Positions 39,945-48,729 of a DNA stretch of 48,729 bases are shown in pieces. The DNA is from Thermodesulfobacteriota bacterium. Lineage in GTDB: Bacteria > Desulfobacterota > Binatia > HRBIN30 > CADEER01. The stretch's first letter is position 1. Each line of letters begins with the position of its first letter. A program made the translations under genes and the position numbers. The stretch spans positions 1 through 48,729 of the forward strand of contig JBGTMF010000512.1 of NCBI GenBank assembly GCA_041743795.1, read 5' to 3'. The notes under the pieces are model-generated. The model saw only the letters and a list, made by a program, of their open reading frames with translations. It made no database searches and was not told the origin of the DNA.

Positions 39945-40177
39945 CAGAACGGTTCACGCTCACCCTGGTGCTGGGAGGCACGGGCCTCCATGAAGTCGTC
40001 GGTGACCTCCGGTCCGTCGATGAAGAAGCTATCCCAAGTCGAGTTGAGCGGCGCGATGATGCGCTCCTTGCCGCGAGCGCGCACGCTGACCTGCTTGACG
40101 CCCTCGGGAAGACGCAACTCGGCCGGCAGCCGCACCGCCTGGGTCCGGTTGTTGATGAAGACGGAACTCTTCGCCAT
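39944..40177 (-). CDS. vapB: VapB antitoxin (AbrB/MazE fold)
   Basis: VF.NNRTQAVRLP, WDSFF, DDFM..R...Q.ERE; stop overlaps vapC start. Confidence 0.93.
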   Translation of the reverse strand: MAKSSVFINNRTQAVRLPAELRLPEGVKQVSVRARGKERIIAPLNSTWDSFFIDGPEVTDDFMEARASQHQGEREPF

Positions 40178-40447
40178 GACAGCACCCCTCTTAGTATATG
40201 GCGGACGTATATCCCACGAGGACGCTGATCGCAACGCTTCCTAGCCGGTCCGGGCAAACGTTACCGGACGAAGTCGGAAAACGGCGTCGCCGACGCTTTG
40301 GACATCCACTGGCCGTTGAAGTTGCACCACTCAGCGCCAAGCTCGCGGCCCCGCCCCAGGACTCTCGAACACCATGCGACTTCCACGCCCAAATCGGATC
40401 CCTGAGACGTTTTGACGTTAAGACGTCCAGGCGCTACTTTATGGCGC

Positions 40448-40672
40448 ATGGCTCAAAGAGCGACGATCTACTTCGATGAGGACGTTCACCGGGCCCTGCG
40501 GCTCAAAGCCGCGGCGACCGATCGATCGCTGTCGGACATGGTGAACGAGGCAGTGAAACTCGCGCTGTCCGAGGACGCCGAGGATCTCGAGGCGTTCGAT
40601 ACGCGCAAACGCGAGCCTTCGGTGAGTTTCGAAACTTTCGTGAAGGGGCTGAAGGCGCGTGGGGCGATATAG
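40448..40672 (+). CDS. RHH/CopG-family antitoxin
   Basis: RATIYFDEDVHRALRLKAA...SLSDMVNEAV; overlaps relE-like gene. Confidence 0.85.
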   Translation: MAQRATIYFDEDVHRALRLKAAATDRSLSDMVNEAVKLALSEDAEDLEAFDTRKREPSVSFETFVKGLKARGAI

Positions 40673-40922
40673 CGTCCGCCTCCTACGCTCGGCTGCGAAG
40701 GAGATCGAGGCGATCTCGACGAAGAAGGAACGCCAGGCCATCGTCCGCCGGATCGAGGACCTCGCCGGAGATCCCCGCGGGATGGGGTGTGAGAAGCTTG
40801 CCGGTCGTGAAGATCGTTACCGCGTGCGCCAGGGGCGGTACCGCATCGTCTATTCCATCGAGGACGACGTGCTGACGGTAGTGGTTGTGAAGGTCGGCCA
40901 CCGCAAGGACGTGTACTGCTAG
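40659..40922 (+). CDS. relE: RelE/ParE-family toxin
   Basis: SAAKEI, DPR..GCEKL.G, YRVRQG.YRIVY, KVGHRKDVY. Confidence 0.9.
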   Translation: MGRYSVRLLRSAAKEIEAISTKKERQAIVRRIEDLAGDPRGMGCEKLAGREDRYRVRQGRYRIVYSIEDDVLTVVVVKVGHRKDVYC

Positions 40923-41065
40923 CGGCCTGTCGGACGTTCTCGGCACGCCGTGTGAATCGGCGCCGAAGTTTGATCGCTTTCGGCGTACATGCGTCAGAGT
41001 CGACCCACGCGGTCAACGAGGACGACGACGCCGAAAACTTCGCGCACTTCCACGAGGAGGAAGAA

Positions 41066-41158
41066 TGGTCGCGCGTGGATTCCCTCCTTCGCCGAAGGCT
41101 ACAAAGGACAAGCGAACCACCCTCCTCCGCCAAGGCTACAGAGGACAAGCGGACCTCC
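41066..41158 (-). tRNA. tRNA-Val 3' fragment, copy 1 (interrupted by REP-like inserts; att-site remnant)
   Basis: TGGTCGCGCGTGGATT[31 nt]CGAACCA[30 nt]CGGACCTCC; removing inserts restores the sequence of copy 2 with one mismatch. Confidence 0.8.
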
Positions 41159-41186
41159 CTCCTTCGCCGAGGCTTCGGAGGGCGAG
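41082..41186. repeat. three ~30-nt REP-like hairpin units
   Basis: CCCTCCTTCGCCGAAGGCTACAAAGGACAAG (41082-41112), CCCTCCTCCGCCAAGGCTACAGAGGACAAG (41120-41149), CCCTCCTTCGCCGAGGCTTCGGAGGGCGAG (41157-41186). Confidence 0.85.
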
Positions 41187-41230
41187 GGGTGTTGCACCGA
41201 GGCCTCGGGAGGTCCGAGGAGCGTTGGGTA

Positions 41231-41273
41231 TGGTCGCACGTGGATTCGAACCACGGACCTCCTGCATGTGAGA
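41231..41273 (-). tRNA. tRNA-Val(CAC) 3' half, copy 2 (att-site duplication, not a full gene)
   Basis: Minus strand T-CTCACAT-GCAGG-AGGTC-CGTGG-TTCGAAT-CCACG-TGCGACC-A: anticodon loop, variable loop, T-arm, acceptor 3' strand, A73; no 5' half. Confidence 0.9.
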
Positions 41274-41411
41274 GTGGTCAGGCGAACGTCCGGCCTCGTC
41301 CGCGGGCGTCCGAAGTTGTCGATTCAAAGCGGCAATCGAAGACGCGCTGATTCCGTCTGTGTCCGCAGATTTCCGCCAATATGCGCGGCCTTGGCTACAG
41401 TTTGGCTACAG
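41274..41411. promoter_or_regulatory. putative integrase arm region (copy A)
   Basis: GTCC at 41288/41298/41308; TTGGCTACA at 41391 and 41402; homologous to 46391-46527 and 47577-47713. Confidence 0.6.
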
Positions 41412-41490
41412 ACGCAACGGACGTGAGCATGGCGCCGCTGGCCTTGTTTCAGGTGACCGGATCATCGATCCGGGGTAGTGTCGTCGGGCC

Positions 41491-41778
41491 GTGACTGTTC
41501 AACGGAATGTGGTTTTCCGGATTCACGCGATCCGCAGAATGTTTGAGCGAGCGATCGGCGTCGACGATGTGCGAGCCGTCCTCGCGACCGGCGAAACGAT
41601 CGAGGAGTATCCCGACGATGCCCCCTTCCCAAGCCGACTCGTATTGGGAAGCGTGGGCGACCGCCCCATCCACGTCGTCTCTGCCGACGATGTCGACCGT
41701 GGAGAAACGATCGTGATAACCGTATACGAGCCGGACCCGGCGAGATGGGACCCCGGCTTCAGACGGAGGAAGCCATGA
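41491..41778 (+). CDS. DUF4258 protein (putative toxin)
   Basis: HAIRRMFER.I, GETIEEYPDD.P.PS.L.LG, PIHVV, ITVYEPDP..W. Confidence 0.88.
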   Translation: MTVQRNVVFRIHAIRRMFERAIGVDDVRAVLATGETIEEYPDDAPFPSRLVLGSVGDRPIHVVSADDVDRGETIVITVYEPDPARWDPGFRRRKP

Positions 41779-42002
41779 AGTGCGTCATCTGCAAGCAGGG
41801 CGAAACTCAACCCGGCAAAGCCACGGTTACGCTCGAACGAGGGGGCTCCGTCGTGGTCTTCAAATCCGTCCCGGCGGAGATCTGTTCCAACTGCGGCGAA
41901 GAGTACGTCGACGAGAGCACTACGGCGAGGTTACTGTCCGCAGCCGAGGACGCGATGAAAACCGGTGTGCAAGTCGACGTGCGAGAGTACATCGCCGCGT
42001 GA
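41775..42002 (+). CDS. YgiT/MqsA-type zinc-finger antitoxin
   Basis: MKCVICKQG...VPAEICSNCGEEY; ATGA overlap with DUF4258. Confidence 0.88.
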   Translation: MKCVICKQGETQPGKATVTLERGGSVVVFKSVPAEICSNCGEEYVDESTTARLLSAAEDAMKTGVQVDVREYIAA

Positions 42003-42172
42003 GCGACGATTCGCGTCGAGTCCAAACGCGCTTCGCGCGGTCCCAAGCAGCTACGCCGCGCCCCAACGCGACTGCATCGCGGTCCAAAGACGCTCGCCGT
42101 CGCCGGGGGCCGAGCGGCCTGCCCGACGCCAGCGCGCGCCGCTCTCGGTTGGATCCGGATCGAGGTCGACGA

Positions 42173-42715
42173 TCAGCGTTTCTCCGGCACGACTGAAGGC
42201 GGCTTGGACTCGGGCAACTCGTTGGTGAAAGGCCCTCCGCGAGATGGACGTACACCCGACACGACAGCGCCGGTGGACTTGTCCTCGATCCAAGCTGCCC
42301 AGCTGCCCTTTGCGCCGCCTAGGCGTGCCTGGAACTCCTTTCCAAACTCGCGCCAGAATCCTTCACGGAGCACCTCGGCCTTGACCTCGTAGTGGTGTCC
42401 GGGATGCGCGACCAGAGCCAGCACCGCGTTCTCGGTAGAACGAGTGTATCCGCTGCGAAAGGAACACTCGATGACATGTTCTCCCGCCTCGACTTCGATC
42501 TCGAGCTCGACTCGTCCCCAAAAACCAATGTCGATGTCCCGAACCTGCTTACCATCGACCCACCAGACAAACACGTGCCCCTTTTCGAATTCATGCTGTT
42601 CGCTCACCCGTGCGGTCGCGGATTCGCCTTGATCGGCGAGACGAACTTTTGGGTAGCTGTGACATCCAATCGCCAAGGCCGCGAGGCTACAGGCGAGGAA
42701 AACCGTCGCATTCAT
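42173..42715 (-). CDS. hypothetical lipoprotein
   Basis: MNATVFLACSLAALAIG-C lipobox; beta-rich body. Confidence 0.6.
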   Translation of the reverse strand: MNATVFLACSLAALAIGCHSYPKVRLADQGESATARVSEQHEFEKGHVFVWWVDGKQVRDIDIGFWGRVELEIEVEAGEHVIECSFRSGYTRSTENAVLALVAHPGHHYEVKAEVLREGFWREFGKEFQARLGGAKGSWAAWIEDKSTGAVVSGVRPSRGGPFTNELPESKPPSVVPEKR

Positions 42716-42953
42716 AACGGCACGATAGACCGAATAAGCTAGAGATTTGAAGTAATCTCGGCGACGGGAGGTTCGATCCTCCCGAGCAGAGCTTCGACGC
42801 ACCTCGCCCAACGAAGGCGCCGCGCCCCGTGAATTGCAGTGAGCAGCTGAATCCAAATCCATCCACCTCTCCAGAGGGAGAGGTCGCGCGCAGCGCGGGT
42901 GAGGGGACAACCAATGATCTCGCGCAGCGAGACTCCGAATTTCCTGGCCCAAC

Positions 42954-43172
42954 ACCACCGCCGAAGCCGACGTGATCGTCGAGCGCAACGGCCTGTTGTA
43001 CGGCATCGAGGTAAAGGCGACGGCGACACCACATCCACACCACCGTGAAAGCATCGCGCGCTGGCTGGAGCTGGTCGGCCAAACCGCACACGGCGTAGTC
43101 GCCTGCGACATCGAGCGCCCCAAGTCACTCCGCCGCGGGATTCGCGCCGTCCCTTGGCACCTCGCCTGGTAG
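42954..43172 (+). pseudogene. 3' fragment of AAA-ATPase/DUF4143 protein
   Basis: EADVIVERNG...GIEVKAT PD-(D/E)xK-like C-terminus; no ATPase part upstream. Confidence 0.6.
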
Positions 43173-43299
43173 TGTCAGAGGAAAGAAGGAGAGGAAAGAA
43201 GGACACCCACTCCTCGAAGGCCAGCCAACTCGTTGATTTCATTCACAATCGAGTCGCCCATCCGAGTGGGTGTTCTTCGAGAGGGTGTCCGCATTCGAG

Positions 43300-43555
43300 T
43301 GGCTTGCGTATGAGCCGCAGCTCCCTGAAGGCAGGCCTGGCCAGAGAACGGACCACGTTTCAGTCGATCCTGACCGAGACCCGCGCGGAAATGGCTCGCG
43401 ACTACCTCTGCCACGGGCACTACTCCATCAAGGAGATCGCCTTCCTGCTCGGGTTCGCCGACGCGACGACCTTCACCCGCGCGTTTCGCGCCTGGACGGG
43501 CGAACCTCCCGCACGCTTCGCCGCCGCCCGGCGGCGCGGCGGCCGCGCAACGTAG
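43300..43555 (+). pseudogene. AraC HTH C-terminal fragment
   Basis: TTFQSIL...R...A..YL....SIKEIAFLLGFAD...F.RAFR.WTG..P; sensing domain absent. Confidence 0.7.
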
Positions 43556-43893
43556 TCGGTCATCGGGTTATGCGGAGATCTGCGGTCACGGGGGCGATCA
43601 CTCCGTACAGCAACGTTTCGATCACGGCGCCGACGCGCCGCTCACTGACCTGCTCGTCGGCGCCGGCGAGCACGAGCAGGGTGTAGTGAGACCGATGGGG
43701 ACGTATGTATCGAATCGTCCACGCCCGAGGACGCCGCGCCGCCGACCGAAGTTCACACAACGCGGCAACTCGGCTGACTCGTTACCTACGTCCCCCGCCT
43801 TCCCCGAAGTTCTGGCCTTCAGCGACCTTCATTCGAGGAAGCGTCGGCCGACTAACGCCGCATGGTCTAGATCTCGAACGCGAGAGATCGAGC

Positions 43894-44631
43894 ATGGCGG
43901 TGAATCTGCGCAAGAGGATCGTGAGTCGCTTGGAAGCCTCGGTTCGGCGGCGAGGCTATCCGCGGACGGCCGTGGCGTTGGCGATCGCGCTGGCTGCTGT
44001 CTCCTCGCTGATCTTGTCAATTGTCCTCCTGCGATGGGGGCTCACTCACATGGGAGTTCGCTATTTCCTGTGCGCGGCATTCGGTTACGGCGTCTTTCTG
44101 GTCCTCCTGCGTATCTTGGTGTCGCGACATTTCCATGAGCTCGACCCTGGGTTGGACTTGTTGAGCCCGCGCGATTTCGCTGACCGACCTCCGTTGCCAT
44201 CTGGAGGAGGCGGCGAGTTTGGAGGCGCGGGGGCGAGCGCCAATTGGAGTGACGGATCGGCTCTCACTTCGTCGTCGACACCCACGGATTCCGATGCAAT
44301 TGGCGGAGGAATCCCGGACGTTGATCTGGACGAGGGATGGGTGATTGCGATTCCGCTCATAATCCTCGGCAGTGGGATTCTAGCGGTTGGCTATATCGTC
44401 GTGATTGCTCCTGTGCTCGTGGCGGAGATCGTCTTGGACCTGGCGATCGCTGACGGTGCCTATCGCGGAGTGATTCGATCGCATCGCCGGCCATGGCCCG
44501 GAGGCGCTTTTCGACGTACTCGACTCGCGGCGCTGGGCCTCGTTGTTTTCGTGGGTATCGGAGGCTCTGCGCTGCAGGCGGCGGCACCGGCCGCGCATAC
44601 GATCGGCGCAGCCGTCACGAGCCTTTGGTGA
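43894..44631 (+). CDS. hypothetical membrane protein with GGGGEFGGAGAS motif
   Basis: Several TM stretches, Gly-rich linker; start uncertain. Confidence 0.7.
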   Translation: MAVNLRKRIVSRLEASVRRRGYPRTAVALAIALAAVSSLILSIVLLRWGLTHMGVRYFLCAAFGYGVFLVLLRILVSRHFHELDPGLDLLSPRDFADRPPLPSGGGGEFGGAGASANWSDGSALTSSSTPTDSDAIGGGIPDVDLDEGWVIAIPLIILGSGILAVGYIVVIAPVLVAEIVLDLAIADGAYRGVIRSHRRPWPGGAFRRTRLAALGLVVFVGIGGSALQAAAPAAHTIGAAVTSLW

Positions 44632-45071
44632 GGAGGCTTTCGAACGTCCGGAAGCCGCTTTCTTCGTTACATTTCGCTGTTGCTCGACGCATTGCGCTCG
44701 TCGTCCCCAGCGCCGATGCGTCCGGGTGATGCATTCAAGTGGATCCGCGACAATACCGAAGTACCGGAGGAGGATCTCACCCGAACCAATGTCGGTGTCC
44801 TACATGCGCATCAAGGCGACGGGAACCATCAAGGGGCAGGGGGACGATCGTCGAACAACTCCACCCGGCCGGATCGAGGAACCAGGGGTTCGATACCGAT
44901 ACCGAGGCATGGGATGGCGGAACAGCGCGCACGCTGACGTCGGGCGGCGCGGTCGCTTTGTGGATTGTGCCACTGTGGCGAGAGGCCGTCCCGAGAGGCA
45001 ATGGAGCGATCGGTACCCTCGACAACGACAGGCGTTGTCAGATGAACGCGGATGCGCGAGATGTTTGTGAG

Positions 45072-45566
45072 ATGGCAGCGAACGTCGACAAGAAGGAAGT
45101 CATCGGAGAGTTGCGCGGACGGCTTCGCGAGAGGCTGAATGGGCTCACCGCTGCGCAGGGGGCGGCTCAGTCGGGTGCCGTGCACGAGGAAACTCGGCAA
45201 GAGGATCCTAAGGATACCCGGGCGATCGAGGCCACCTACCTGGCGCGCGGCCTGGCCGAGCGGGTGGAGACTCTGCGCAACGACATTGCGGCCGTCGGGT
45301 CGATGGAACCGCGTGTGTTCGCGCCGGACGATTCGGTTGCGCTCGGCGCTCTGCTCGGCCTCGAAGAGGTGGGCGGCAACGAGGTGGTCTATTTTCTCGC
45401 TCCGTGCGGCGGCGGCGAAAGGCTCGCAGTCGATGGTGTCGCCGTTCAGGTGTTGACGCCGACATCGCCGCTAGGCAGCGCGCTGATCGACAAAGGCGCT
45501 GGCGAGGAGGTCGACGTCCACCTGCCGGCCCGTCGACTCCAGGCGCTCATCACATGGATCGCATGA
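45072..45566 (+). CDS. GreA/GreB-family protein
   Basis: AVHEE..QEDPKDTRAIEATYLARG, LTPTSPLG.AL..K..GEEV. Confidence 0.82.
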   Translation: MAANVDKKEVIGELRGRLRERLNGLTAAQGAAQSGAVHEETRQEDPKDTRAIEATYLARGLAERVETLRNDIAAVGSMEPRVFAPDDSVALGALLGLEEVGGNEVVYFLAPCGGGERLAVDGVAVQVLTPTSPLGSALIDKGAGEEVDVHLPARRLQALITWIA

Positions 45567-45730
45567 TTCCCACGCTCGAGGGCTGGCAGGGGATGTTCCC
45601 GAATGCCTGAGTTGGAGTAGTGGAGAATGACGGGAGGTGGGGTGTTCACCCCCTGAGTGCTCCCGATCGTGTATCATGCACACACACCGGTATACGGAGT
45701 GGAGCCGTCTCGGGCCGGAGGGAGGCAACG

Positions 45731-46231
45731 ATGAGTGATGCGGCACGCGCGTGGGAGGATCGCGACGCGATTCAGCAGTTGATCTACCGCTACTCCGACG
45801 CGGTGACGCGGGCCGACTATGAGCAGATGGCCACGGTCTTCGCCGCCGACGCCGTGTGGGAGAGCCCGATCCTCGGAATGCACTTCGAGAGCGCACGCGA
45901 GTTCGTCGACTTCCAGATTGAAGGCTGTACGGCGGTCGATGTATTGATCCAAACCGCCGCCGGGCCTGTTGTCGAGCTGCTCGGTCCCGACCGCGCAGTC
46001 GCAACCACGAACATCCGCGAGATCATCCGGGGAACGACGACCGTCGACGGGGTGGGGCTTCCTGCTGGGGCCGACATCAACGTCGATCAATATGGGATCT
46101 ACTTCGACGAGTTCAAGAAGATCGACGGCGCGTGGAAGTTCACCCGGCGGGTCTTCGTTCCGATCCTGATCGCATCGGGCCCAGTGGTCGGGGACATCAC
46201 GACTACCCGGCCGGTCGCTCGACCTGGGTGA
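45731..46231 (+). CDS. NTF2/SnoaL-like protein
   Basis: DRDAIQQLIYRYSDAV..., FAADAVW, YFDEF.K.DG.WKFTRR; GGAGG RBS. Confidence 0.85.
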   Translation: MSDAARAWEDRDAIQQLIYRYSDAVTRADYEQMATVFAADAVWESPILGMHFESAREFVDFQIEGCTAVDVLIQTAAGPVVELLGPDRAVATTNIREIIRGTTTVDGVGLPAGADINVDQYGIYFDEFKKIDGAWKFTRRVFVPILIASGPVVGDITTTRPVARPG

Positions 46232-46288
46232 GCCTCCAAGCAGGCGCGCCAGACCTGCCGATCCGGGTCCTCGCGAGGCGTCGGATAC

Positions 46289-46390
46289 GGTCGCACGTGG
46301 ATTCCCTCCTTCGCCAAGGCTACGGACGGCAGGCGAACCACCCTCCTCCGCCAAGGCTACGGAGGACAAGCGGACCTCCTGCAGGTGAGA
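46289..46390 (-). tRNA. tRNA-Val 3' half, copy 3 (two REP-like inserts)
   Basis: GGTCGCACGTGGATT[46304-46333]CGAACCA[46341-46370]CGGACCTCCTGCAGGTGAGA. Confidence 0.85.
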
Positions 46391-46527
46391 AGGATCAGGG
46401 AACAGTCCGCCACAGTCGGCAGACGTCCCAAATTGTAGATCGCAAACGGATTCCTAAGAAGCGCTGATTCCGCCCACATGCGCCGGATTCAACCACCGTC
46501 CAACTCGTTGGCTACAACTGGGCTACG
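46391..46527. promoter_or_regulatory. putative integrase arm region (copy B)
   Basis: GTCC/GTCG/GTCC at 46405/46415/46425; TTGGCTACA 46508 and TGGGCTACG 46519. Confidence 0.6.
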
Positions 46528-46593
46528 AGTTCTGCAGGCCTCGGATTGCGCTGGTAGCAGACAAGCTGCCGGAACACGCCTATGTTTACCGAT

Positions 46594-46699
46594 CTATCGG
46601 CGAGCCCTCAAGTACCAAGGTTCTCGACTGCAGCGCATGACCGCAACGATAAGGACGAAGTCTGGCTCGATGGCGTAATGCACGCCGTACCGAAACGCG
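46594..46699 (-). pseudogene. 3' fragment of ParE/RelE-like toxin
   Basis: AFRYGVHYAIEPDFVLIVAVMRCSREPWYLRARR* resembles FPY...Y.......I.AV.H..R.P.YW. Confidence 0.6.
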
Positions 46700-46765
46700 T
46701 GGGTGCAGGAGTTGATAGATGAGGAATGTCCCCCTGTGAGCGAAACGGACCGGCCGGCTCGTTGC

Positions 46766-47335
46766 TCAGGCGTTGCGAGCCGCCGCGTAGATCTCGTCGA
46801 TCTGTAACTCGACGCCGATTGCGTGGAGAGGAACCGCCTCGCCGCCACCAAACGAGCGAAGCTGCCAACCGTCCCCGCCTCGGGTCCACAGCTCGAAGCG
46901 CTCGGAGGCGTGATCCACGATCGCGATCGCTTCGAGCGTTCGGATCGTCTTGTAGTGCTCGAGCTTCTCGCCGCGATCGTACTCGGCGGTGCCGGGGCTG
47001 GTGATTTCAACGACCACCTTCGGGTTGACGACGTGCGCTGTGCTTTCGGGGTCGCGCTCCGACGGGCCGCAAATCACGGTGACATCGGGATAGGTTGCGA
47101 GCCCGGTGGCGAGAACGCGAACGCGGAGGTCCGAGCTGTAGACGCGGCACGTTTGCGGGTCGAGTTGACGGCCGAGAGCGGCGGTGATCGTGGCCGCCAT
47201 CGCCGCGTGTTCGGGCGTGCCGCCGGCCATCGCGTAGATTTCACCGTCGAGAAACTCGTGTCGAACGCGAGCGACTTCTTCGAGATCGAGGTACTCGGTG
47301 AAGGTGTAGGCGTGTAGCGCGGCGGGGCGGTTCAT
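46766..47335 (-). CDS. Uma2-family endonuclease
   Basis: EYL..E....RHEFLDGEIYAMAGGTPEH, YSSDLRV, TYPDV, EITSPGT..YDRGEKL.HY. Confidence 0.92.
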   Translation of the reverse strand: MNRPAALHAYTFTEYLDLEEVARVRHEFLDGEIYAMAGGTPEHAAMAATITAALGRQLDPQTCRVYSSDLRVRVLATGLATYPDVTVICGPSERDPESTAHVVNPKVVVEITSPGTAEYDRGEKLEHYKTIRTLEAIAIVDHASERFELWTRGGDGWQLRSFGGGEAVPLHAIGVELQIDEIYAAARNA

Positions 47336-47533
47336 GACGAGACGATAGCGGATGCGCACCGGCAAATCACGCGCGAAGGCGCGAGGACCAAGCCGTTCCT
47401 GGCAAGGATCGACGCCTGCCATTCTCGCTCCCGAAGGTGGTGTGAACACCCACCCAGCCTCGGCGGCGAGGGCGGCTTCGCCGGGGATGATGACGAAGCC
47501 GCTAACGTGGCGCAATTCCTCGAAGAGGAAGAG

Positions 47534-47576
47534 TGGTCGCACGTGGATTCGAACCACGGACCTCCTGCATGTGAGA
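47534..47576 (-). tRNA. tRNA-Val(CAC) 3' half, copy 4
   Basis: 43 nt identical to 41231-41273. Confidence 0.9.
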
Positions 47577-47713
47577 AGGGTCAGCGAACAGTCCGCCACC
47601 GTCCGCAGACGTCCCAAGTTGTCGATCGCAAACGGGTTCCGAAGAAGCGGTGATTCCGCCCACGTACGCCGGATTCCACCACCGTCCAACTCATTGGCTA
47701 CAACTTGGCTACA
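47577..47713. promoter_or_regulatory. putative integrase arm region (copy C)
   Basis: GTCC at 47591/47601/47611; TTCC/GTAC/TTCC/GTCC at 47654/47664/47674/47684; TTGGCTACA at 47694 and 47705. Confidence 0.6.
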
Positions 47714-47793
47714 AGTTGTGCAGGCGCCAGCGTGTGCCGATAGCAGACGAGCTGCCCGACGAGCTGCCCGACGACCTGCCTATGGTTCCCGCC

Positions 47794-47880
47794 CTATCGC
47801 GAACCCTCCAGTACCCAGGGTCTCAACTGCAGCGTATGACCGAAGCGACGAGGATGAAGTCGCTCGATGGCGTAATGCAC
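47794..47880 (-). pseudogene. second, more decayed ParE-like 3' fragment
   Basis: DNA-homologous to 46594-46683 (VHYAIE...DFILV...CS*DPGYWR) with indels and a stop. Confidence 0.55.
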
Positions 47881-47985
47881 TACGCACGGAGCGCCGGTCC
47901 AAGGGGTCAACGGTTCCATGTGCGGACGGTCAATCCGAGTGCAGCATGCTCGCACGGCACGACCGCAGCGCCTACATGACTGGAC

Positions 47986-48057
47986 TCATCGGAGCCCCAA
48001 AAACGACAGAATCACCAAGACGACGACGATCACGCCAATGATGTAGAAGATGTTCAT
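47986..48057 (-). CDS. 23-aa single-TM small protein (MNIFYIIGVIVVVLVILSFLGLR)
   Basis: AAGGAG RBS 5 nt before ATG, uniformly hydrophobic ORF, upstream sigma-54-like promoter; below the ORF-track cutoff. Confidence 0.7.
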   Translation of the reverse strand: MNIFYIIGVIVVVLVILSFLGLR

Positions 48058-48095
48058 GTGGGCTCCTTCCGATTCGCAATGATAACGGAAGTCAC

Positions 48096-48110
48096 GCAAG
48101 CACCGTGCCG
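48096..48110 (-). promoter_or_regulatory. putative sigma-54 promoter
   Basis: Minus strand CGGCACGGTGCTTGC (GG-N10-GC), ~40 bp upstream of small-protein ATG. Confidence 0.6.
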
Positions 48111-48263
48111 GACCTGATCGGTAATGCTAGAGCCGCATCGATCATGCCCTTTCACTTCAGCATGGAATAACCCGGCAGTCTTTGTAAGGATTGCACCAAT
48201 TTCCTCCGCGAAGACGGAAAGCTCGACCGCGAGGGGCCCCCCAAAACGTTGTGGCCTGTTACT

Positions 48264-48729
48264 CTAGCCCTCTCCTCCGCGCTCCCGCGTGCGTGGGCCC
48301 GGCACGGACTCGTCGAGCGAGGCGAGGATCGTTCGCAGGGTGTCGATGTCGGCAGGCTTGATGAGGTGGTGGTCGAACCCCGCAGCGCGGGATCGACGCC
48401 GGTCCTCCTCCTGGCCCCACCCCGTCACGGCGATGAGCGTCACGTTCTTCAAGGCGGGATCTCGTCGGATGCGGCGCGCCACTTCGTGGCCGTCCATGCC
48501 CGGCATCCCGATGTCCAGCAGCACGACCGTTGCCGCCGCGTCCAGAGCCTCCTGGCCGCTGAACGTCACCTGAACGTCGACGCCGAGCAGCGTGAGGAGC
48601 ATGCCCACGCTCCCGGCCGAATCGCGGTTGTCATCGACCACCAACACGCGGTGCGCGCGAAGCATCGACGACGCGGTATCCGCCGCCGCGGGGACGTCCG
48701 CACTGGCCCGCGCGGCCAGCGGCAGGCGG
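48264..48729 (-). CDS. C-terminal receiver domain of a probable hybrid histidine kinase (5' end outside window)
   Basis: RLP..linker..RVLVVDDN, VLLDIGMPGMDG, IAVTGWG, HLIKP; frame open to window edge. Confidence 0.85.
   Translation of the reverse strand, partial: RLPLAARASADVPAAADTASSMLRAHRVLVVDDNRDSAGSVGMLLTLLGVDVQVTFSGQEALDAAATVVLLDIGMPGMDGHEVARRIRRDPALKNVTLIAVTGWGQEEDRRRSRAAGFDHHLIKPADIDTLRTILASLDESVPGPRTRERGGEG

Follow-up and report, generated by a model that had tools for sequence, protein, structure and literature searches.

The window, that is, the whole 48,729-nt stretch of DNA analyzed here, corresponds to one complete contig (C512) of the draft genome G000, which comprises 647 contigs (5.54 Mb, 64% GC, 89% complete). 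ARAGORN called no tRNA gene in the window, and a 41-nt sequence found four times in it (Table 1) corresponds, in antisense, to the tRNA-Val(CAC) 3' part that runs from the anticodon loop to the acceptor end. The true tRNA-Val(CAC) gene of G000 lies on contig C263 at c[4930,5004], and copies 2 and 4 match its 3' 42 nt without a difference, copy 3 showing one change in its anticodon-loop part (TGCAGG versus TGCATG). Three further copies of the tRNA-Val 3' part are carried by contigs C549, C547, and C36, each with the same ~150-nt right arm, which brings the att copies of the draft to eight, real tRNA included. Arms homologous to that of copy 4 lie to the right of copies 2 and 3 as well as on these three contigs, and TTGGCTACA direct repeats are present on both arms. 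The left flank of copy 4 is a remnant of an integrase 3' end and resembles the flank of the C263 tRNA gene, toward which a 443-aa open reading frame (C263, 3662-4993, + strand) with Phage_integrase (E 2.4e-26) and SAM-like domains is headed before terminating within it. Small cargo genes (PIN, ParE, MqsA-like, AraC, SnoaL, and Uma2) are found between the att copies of the window. Because copies of the tRNA 3' part, an integrase adjoining the intact tRNA, arm repeats, and interposed cargo come together here, the window copies are, on sequence grounds, att repeats from a tandem array of tyrosine-integrase islands that has decayed.

The array and its cargo cassettes span positions 40659-48729 of the window, with related contigs C263 (L013), C549 (L010), C547 (L011), and C36 (L012); the segment C549:5856-7073 is 92% identical to the last 1.2 kb of the window and represents either a paralogue or a strain variant. 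The C263 integrase frame remains open for 88 residues beyond the catalytic domain, which places the att core inside the int reading frame, and in copy 3 the same int frame is open across both 30-nt inserts (ORF 46132-46467, no Pfam match).

Table 1. Features of the att-Val array in the window
Feature	Coordinates	Strand	Description
att copy 1	41067..41156	+	Antisense tRNA-Val(CAC) 3' end, split by units 1a and 2a
att copy 1, tRNA pieces	41067-41081, 41113-41119, 41150-41156		Second piece CGAACCA, third piece CGGACCT
Unit 1a	41082-41112		31 nt, site 1 of copy 1
Unit 2a	41120-41149		30 nt, site 2 of copy 1
Third unit	41157-41186	+	CCCTCC...GGAGGGCGAG, directly after CGGACCT of copy 1
att copy 2	41232..41272	+	Intact (empty site)
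att copy 3	46289..46389	+	Split by units 1b and 2b
att copy 3, tRNA pieces	46289-46303, 46334-46340, 46371-46389		Second piece CGAACCA, third piece CGGACCTCCTGCAGGTGAG
Unit 1b	46304-46333		30 nt, site 1 of copy 3, decayed
Unit 2b	46341-46370		30 nt, site 2 of copy 3, intact hairpin
att copy 4	47535..47575	+	Intact (empty site)
Conserved arm right of att core	47576..47725	+	Direct repeat TTGGCTACAACTTGGCTACAAG, putative arm-type integrase site

Paired inserts in two att copies

Direct reading of the coordinates confirmed the original prediction that inserts occupy the same two points in copies 1 and 3, one following GGATT and the other following CGAACCA. Site 1 is the center of the T-loop (TT^C/C^GAA) and site 2 the foot of the T-stem (CCA^CGG). 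Also as predicted, once the units are removed the tRNA sequence is whole again, without target duplication and with a 1-nt (C) ambiguity per junction, and the empty sites are visible in the uninterrupted copies 2 and 4, to which C549, C547, C36, and the real tRNA can be added. The view of the units as discrete inserts with exact ends and without target duplication holds for the att-Val, tRNA-Ser, and REP sites alike. Allowing ≤3 mismatches, the 19-mer that follows the inserts on the right matched 3 times for 0.02 expected, an excess that, together with the absence of matches in the reversed control described below, excludes chance. Moreover, contigs from a second assembler, built from two runs, spanned both interrupted copies with 0 differences, these runs being probably the source samples and thus not independent data.

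The tRNA homology of copy 1 stops at the third unit, and the 45 nt beyond it are the left flank of copy 2; the three units of this copy occupy the three borders of the adjacent heptamers CGAACCA and CGGACCT. As a side observation, the tRNA sequence between successive units is 7 nt long in both copies, and the two heptamers are alike at 5 of 7 positions, for which our own arithmetic gives a chance of ~0.013 for a given pair, the observation being post hoc. The 7-nt spacing may reflect a ruler or a heptamer-phased target. When folded as single-stranded DNA, one of the five window units (unit 2b) is still a good hairpin (-6.6 kcal/mol, z -2.9), and both site-1 units are decayed, with loss of the stem. 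An Rfam search of window positions 40000-48729 and of 10 unit loci returned nothing relevant, the sole sound match being a tRNA.

Relationship between the two filled copies

In both copies, column 8 of the unit alignment is T in the site-1 unit and C in the site-2 unit. Between copies 1 and 3, 1 of 30 positions differs in the site-2 units and 1 of 31 in the tRNA pieces. This shared T/C difference, coupled to the near identity of the site-2 units, favors one filled ancestor. The site-1 units are 5 substitutions and 1 indel apart and share no derived change, versus 2 differences in the other 61 nt, and the left flanks are unrelated, that of copy 1 resembling the flank with the integrase tail seen at copy 4 and at the real tRNA and that of copy 3 resembling copy 2. 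Hence, the divergence of the site-1 units and the unlike left flanks keep independence open. The other att-Val copies in G000 are empty at both sites in 6 of 6 cases. At least four positions in or next to att-Val copies hold units (the T-loop, the T-stem foot, the position after CGGACCT, and a position 5 nt off on C549), and, as judged from these alignments, the att-Val region as a whole was clearly hit repeatedly. As for the doubly filled T-arm, one filled ancestor that spread between att repeats appears slightly more likely than independent double hits, at about twice the odds.

Architecture of the 30-nt unit

An alignment of 57 distinct units from G000, its genus, and a few genomes of the order gave covariation support for a 6-bp stem pairing columns 1-6 with 21-26. 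Five of its six pairs change on both sides (23 cells), a value that 0 of 500 shuffles reached and that exceeded all slid controls. The fold proposed originally, TCCTCCG/CGGAGGA (columns 4-10 with 20-26), was not supported, as it showed no covariation and 252 of 500 shuffles reached its paired percentage. The stem begins with T/C, C, C and encloses a 14-nt loop conserved in sequence (T-Y-CGCCAAGGCT-W-C); it is followed by a 3' tail, C-A-R-G plus one variable base. Each 30-nt unit contains one hairpin. The reverse strand begins C-Y-T-G-T-C-C, and the TC of its TGTC falls within the covarying stem. The GTAG noted earlier on the other strand is indeed read in units with A at column 19; as a family tag it does not stand, being internal to the loop and not conserved. 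Column 19 is A or T, with T in the 57-unit consensus, and T units read GAAG on the other strand.

Filled and empty sites elsewhere in the genus

The sister species G004 carries a classical GTAG-REP, GTAGGGGCGA[CG]GCATGC[GC]TCGCCC, often as inverted pairs. Its palindrome GGGCGA[CG]GCA^TGC[GC]TCGCCC has 85 matches per strand, nearly all of those listed being the uninterrupted 18-mer, and 26 of the 29 fetched G004 units, each with one extra base, sit exactly between the GCA and the TGC of this palindrome. With respect to the GTAG tag, units are found in either orientation, and in two REP doublets (L264 and L280) both units lie on the same strand though the two REPs are inverted, which argues that orientation follows the strand and not the host repeat. 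GTAG-REP/REPIN loci of G004 are L023, L033, L039, and L261-L280. The palindrome pattern was without a match in G001, G003, and G005, and G002 had just two, both long-gapped.

In G001, a second tRNA-Ser(TGA) 3' fragment located ~1 kb from the intact gene holds a unit between AACCGG and TGACGG, in the same orientation relative to the tRNA as in the window, and in G003 two units lie within the palindrome GGAATCGGTCTAG/ACCGATTCC. No target duplication was found at the att-Val, G004 REP, G001 tRNA-Ser, or G003 palindrome sites. At the unit locus downstream of tRNA-Leu on C97 of G000, relatives keep the tRNA and the upstream side, not the downstream side. No filled/empty polymorphism was seen in public runs at the level of contigs, in which rare variants would not show; two soil runs with small shares yielded only short, diverged pieces. 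A scan of metagenome contigs for att sequences with site 1 filled gave 85 pattern matches, all due to chance and none with a unit, and thus revealed no intermediate between empty and doubly filled sites.

Two other repeat families host the unit. A MITE-like repeat of ~200 bp, with terminal inverted repeats TAGCAGCCCGTTGAAAAACAGG ... CTGTTTTTCAACGGACTGCTA, contains the unit close to its center in each of the 8 aligned copies (G000 contigs C76, C88, C96, C124, and C372, L001-L005; G001, L040 and L052; G005, L037), and compensatory stem changes of the unit distinguish these copies. On C75, C289, and C318 of G000 (L006, L007), units lie between the arms of a hairpin, CCTCTCCCA ... CCGGGAGAGG, with CCCCTCACC ahead; this hairpin is widespread and forms the second family.

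Insertion preferences

Among the matches listed, 12 of 121 loci (323 nt each) contain a whole tRNA gene within 150 nt, for an expected share that our own arithmetic, based on 46 tRNAs in 5.5 Mb, puts well under 1%. Ten of these 12 loci place the unit downstream of the 3' end of the tRNA, with a single relative orientation, and in 3 the distance is only 2 to 3 nt. A T-arm motif within 150 nt was also seen at further loci for which ARAGORN made no call. Of the 11 G000 units within 6 substitutions of the consensus, 4 fall in the two filled att copies, the 31-nt copy being a fifth; moreover, C549 carries a partial unit 5 nt beyond the att 3' end, and one unit lies 80 nt from a tRNA-Leu gene. The favored foldable places are the T-loop center, the T-stem foot, the REP palindrome center, and tRNA 3' flanks. 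Thus, of the site preference put forward originally, a strong preference of the family for the tRNA-derived region and for foldable DNA is retained; the independent double insertion is disfavored by the shared column-8 difference and by site-2 units differing at 1 of 30 positions.

A CG dinucleotide had been proposed as the target. Over 122 units drawn from many phyla, the first base past the tail is C in 60 and the second is G in 22, and the logo of their flanks, suggested as a check, has all upstream positions below an information content (IC) of 0.1 and no position outside the unit above 0.3; the actual site in G004 is GCA^TGC. On these results, CG was rejected as the target. Landing at hairpin apexes was rejected as a general rule, since a perfect flanking inverted repeat of ≥6 bp was found in only 5 of 120 units across phyla (permuted control, mean 0.7, maximum 3), and site 2 and the tRNA-Ser site are helix feet, not apexes. 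In other phyla, units also occur inside heptamer-type arrays, e.g., CACGGAT around L148, L149, and L213. In G004:C536 (L296), the best match to the 3' half of tRNA-Leu(GAG) is accompanied by two additional ones a few hundred bases away, which suggests a second tRNA locus of the genus with tandem att fragments.

Copy number and phyletic spread

At ≤2 mismatches, a 22-nt core has 10 matches in G000 and its reversed control none in all 41 genomes; looser searches bring the total of G000 to ~20 units. In the five other species the genus comprises here, matches number 8, 0, 6, 27, and 14; the 12 genomes of other genera of the same family have none, and 5 of 15 genomes of a second family have 1 to 4. 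The doubly interrupted att is confined to G000, i.e., 1 of 52 genomes of the order. This count and those over 41 genomes include G008, which is flagged as unpublished and on which nothing else rests.

With one genome per species, the exact 23-nt core occurs at no fewer than 121 loci, from 3 of the 64 parts of the collection, and ~2,900 stored stretches are estimated across the whole. The hosts comprise Saccharibacteria, other CPR groups, Omnitrophota, Bacteroidia, Verrucomicrobiota, Kiritimatiellia, Planctomycetota, Acidobacteriota, Myxococcales, alpha-, beta-, and gammaproteobacteria, and cyanobacteria, with cultured Geomonas, Mesorhizobium, and Plastoroseomonas among them. By these core matches, the unit family is pan-bacterial, its core being almost letter-for-letter the same across many phyla. 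A literature search for 12-nt loop words found no paper carrying them. As a side observation, locus L031 (G035:C148, 100-189) has three units head to tail, in direct tandem with a 30-nt period and no spacer. Phylum-wide, none of 401 matches was a tandem pair under a pattern that is too strict even for the decayed copies of the window.

Search for the moving enzyme

Seven matches to Y1_Tnp (PF01797) were found in G000, itself 89% complete. The unit had been assigned to the GTAG-REPs, with a RAYT or Y1 gene expected between units. None of the 7 Y1_Tnp loci has a unit within ~1.5 kb on each side (shorter at contig ends), and GTAG is not a terminal tag, so this membership was abandoned. Two 159-aa RAYT-like Y1 genes, 91% identical (L016 on C245, 1453-1932, + strand; L017 on C292, 286-765, - strand), share a flanking repeat that has no relation to the 30-nt unit; the spurious ORFs lying across it read ...SRWLSEAIPPV... 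and ...PEGSKRLAGG.... RAYT-like homologues are present in 7 of 10 genomes with units versus 7 of 31 without, these genomes being related and not independent, and G004, the genome richest in units, yielded no homologue. The link of the RAYT-like protein to the unit is at most a weak lead. The phyletic profile of PF05635, present in 34 of 41 genomes, showed no pattern with the unit. No transposase could be tied to the unit by these flank searches and profiles. The missing target duplication, the strand-bound orientation, and the hairpin point to a possible HUH-like single-strand mechanism.

Discussion

REP and REPIN elements and the RAYT (TnpA_REP) transposases are reportedly the subject of work by Nunvar in 2010 and by Ton-Hoang in 2012. 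Like them, the unit is a small GC-rich extragenic hairpin, dispersed and sometimes clustered, with presumed movement as single-stranded DNA and no target duplication. Unlike a GTAG-REP, it has no terminal GTAG and combines a 6-bp stem with a conserved 14-nt loop; unlike REPINs, which are inverted doublets in hundreds of copies, it occurs as singlets or direct tandems at 0- or 7-nt spacing, with ~20 copies per genome. Moreover, in contrast to the REP/RAYT system, it does not lie beside a RAYT gene and is itself inserted into the GTAG-REPs of a sister species. The phrase "downstream of tRNA" was not found among the matches listed in the REP literature.

Insertion sequences of the IS1397/IS621 type target the center of REP palindromes and are full ISs with their own transposase; the unit likewise lands at the center of palindromic repeats but is a 30-nt passenger. 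It shares the lack of target duplication with the IS200/IS605 miniatures (PATE), which have two different subterminal hairpins and insert 3' of a fixed tetra- or pentanucleotide, whereas the unit has one hairpin and, over 122 units, no flank position with an IC above 0.3. The SDR1-8 of Nostocaceae, reportedly described by Elhai et al. in 2008, are said to be 21- to 27-nt hairpins with compensatory changes, restricted to one cyanobacterial group and nested in other repeats, SDR5 being inside the short palindrome HIP1. Similarly, the unit is a 30-nt hairpin with compensatory changes that nests in repeats, sits in short palindromes, and enters some heptamer arrays; it differs from the SDRs in being pan-phylum, and the likeness is one of description. 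The SDRs are also touched on in a passage of PMC5861425.

The CGTC/TGTC REPs, according to passages of Di Nocera, De Gregorio and Rocco 2013 (PMC3733652), have 8- to 9-bp stems starting with A/T, loops of 4 to 5 nt, and a CCA tail. Such REPs bear an unpaired terminal CGTC, TGTC, or CCTC tag; TGTC does stand on the reverse strand of the unit, but with its TC in the covarying stem. No dedicated transposase is known in either case, and some of those families are found in several phyla and inside genes (PMC3733652), whereas the 6-bp stem, 14-nt loop, and C-A-R-G tail of the unit differ from them. Neither GCCAAGGC nor CCAAGGCT nor their complements occur in the supplement files of PMC3733652, a search that a consensus printed only in figures would escape, and GCCAAGG and CCTTGGC are absent from its main text. 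The Rickettsia palindromic elements (RPEs) and intragenic REPs, as summarized in the same article, are palindromic repeats in genes or RNA-related loci, tolerated where function allows (PMC3733652), and the unit is similar to RPEs in this respect; unlike RPEs, given there as about 100 to 150 bp and of one lineage, it lies in dead tRNA fragments and not in coding loops. In the relevant passages of Bertels and Rainey 2011 (PMC3116915), REP singlets are regarded as immobile remnants, whereas the singlets found here have filled and empty sites. Altogether, the unit behaves as a miniature hairpin element of the REP or SDR type and stands apart from the GTAG-REP/REPIN class, the published CGTC REPs, and the two-ended IS200/IS605 derivatives.

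We propose a model in which the units are pan-bacterial, ultra-small insertion modules of a single hairpin, moved as single-stranded DNA, and in which the doubly filled T-arm arose once; we give this model about even odds (a probability of roughly 0.5). An enzyme acting in trans, possibly an HUH-type nuclease, would move the unit through a single-stranded DNA stage. Exposed hairpins would be the preferred landing places, and tRNA genes and their fragments would supply them. In live tRNA genes, only flanking insertions would survive, whereas in dead att fragments internal ones would persist and accumulate. The doubly filled T-arm would then have been copied to a second att by recombination or gene conversion between att repeats. 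The divergence of the site-1 units and the unrelated left flanks fit poorly with one origin unless gene conversion is invoked. These same two features, together with the four or more occupied positions in or next to att-Val copies, would be expected if a site-specific element had struck copies 1 and 3 independently, twice each and at matching positions; the similar heptamers bounding the insertion points could provide a target feature for it. Nevertheless, both copies share the T/C difference between sites and nearly the same site-2 unit, the six other att-Val copies of G000 are empty, the doubly filled form is limited to a single genome of the order, and no flank motif is conserved across the 122 units, so that we hold independent hits to be possible and not probable.

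That the unit does not move at all, and is a functional hairpin (a transcript end or stabilizer downstream of tRNAs, or a protein-binding site) kept by selection and carried along with flanking DNA, would agree with its orientation bias, its closeness to tRNA 3' ends, and the conservation of its loop across phyla. Compensatory stem changes inside a conserved MITE, all 8 copies of which keep the unit, could likewise mean selection for function and not mobility. The exactness of the inserts, which in three unrelated contexts leave the tRNA or REP sequence around them unaltered, the decay of units in dead att fragments, and a near-identical core across phyla that is hard to obtain without horizontal spread make such an immobile hairpin quite unlikely. 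As a small GC-rich hairpin reading GTAG on the other strand of window copies, in a genome with RAYT-like Y1 genes, the unit could pass for an ordinary GTAG-type REP or REPIN moved by RAYT; yet this GTAG is internal and not conserved, inverted doublets are absent and copies few, a different repeat flanks the RAYT-like genes, and in G004 the unit is a foreign insert inside true GTAG-REPs, all of which leaves this identity very little credit. An assembly artifact of a repeat-rich metagenome bin might be suspected from a draft of 647 contigs with att copies at or near contig ends elsewhere, but the second assembler reproduced both interrupted copies and the family also occurs in isolate genomes, so an artifact is scarcely conceivable.

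Our study adds a combination that is new, namely, the size of the unit, its conserved loop, and its pan-phylum spread, with clean empty sites for a singlet. Insertion of such a unit into other repeats and into tRNA-derived att sites is also new. Although small hairpin repeats are a common find, how single hairpins move is unsettled, the REPIN model treating singlets as dead, and the att-Val locus and the REP-center sites of G004 provide exact ends and empty sites for a 30-nt singlet. With these exact ends, empty sites, and a near-unchanged core in many phyla, the family constitutes a practical substrate for finding the enzyme. A bolder reading, about which we are doubtful, is that the 30-nt hairpin is a complete mobile element, pan-phylum, with structure-guided targets (tRNA arms and REP centers) and maybe a 7-nt ruler, able to disable att sites. 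If true, this would be a mobile element far below the size of REPINs and MITEs, and riddling tRNA-derived att sites with it could put integrase sites out of action and immobilize island cassettes. Beside these considerations, tRNA-linked inserts can confuse the annotation of tRNAs and att sites, and they may affect whether genomic islands still excise.
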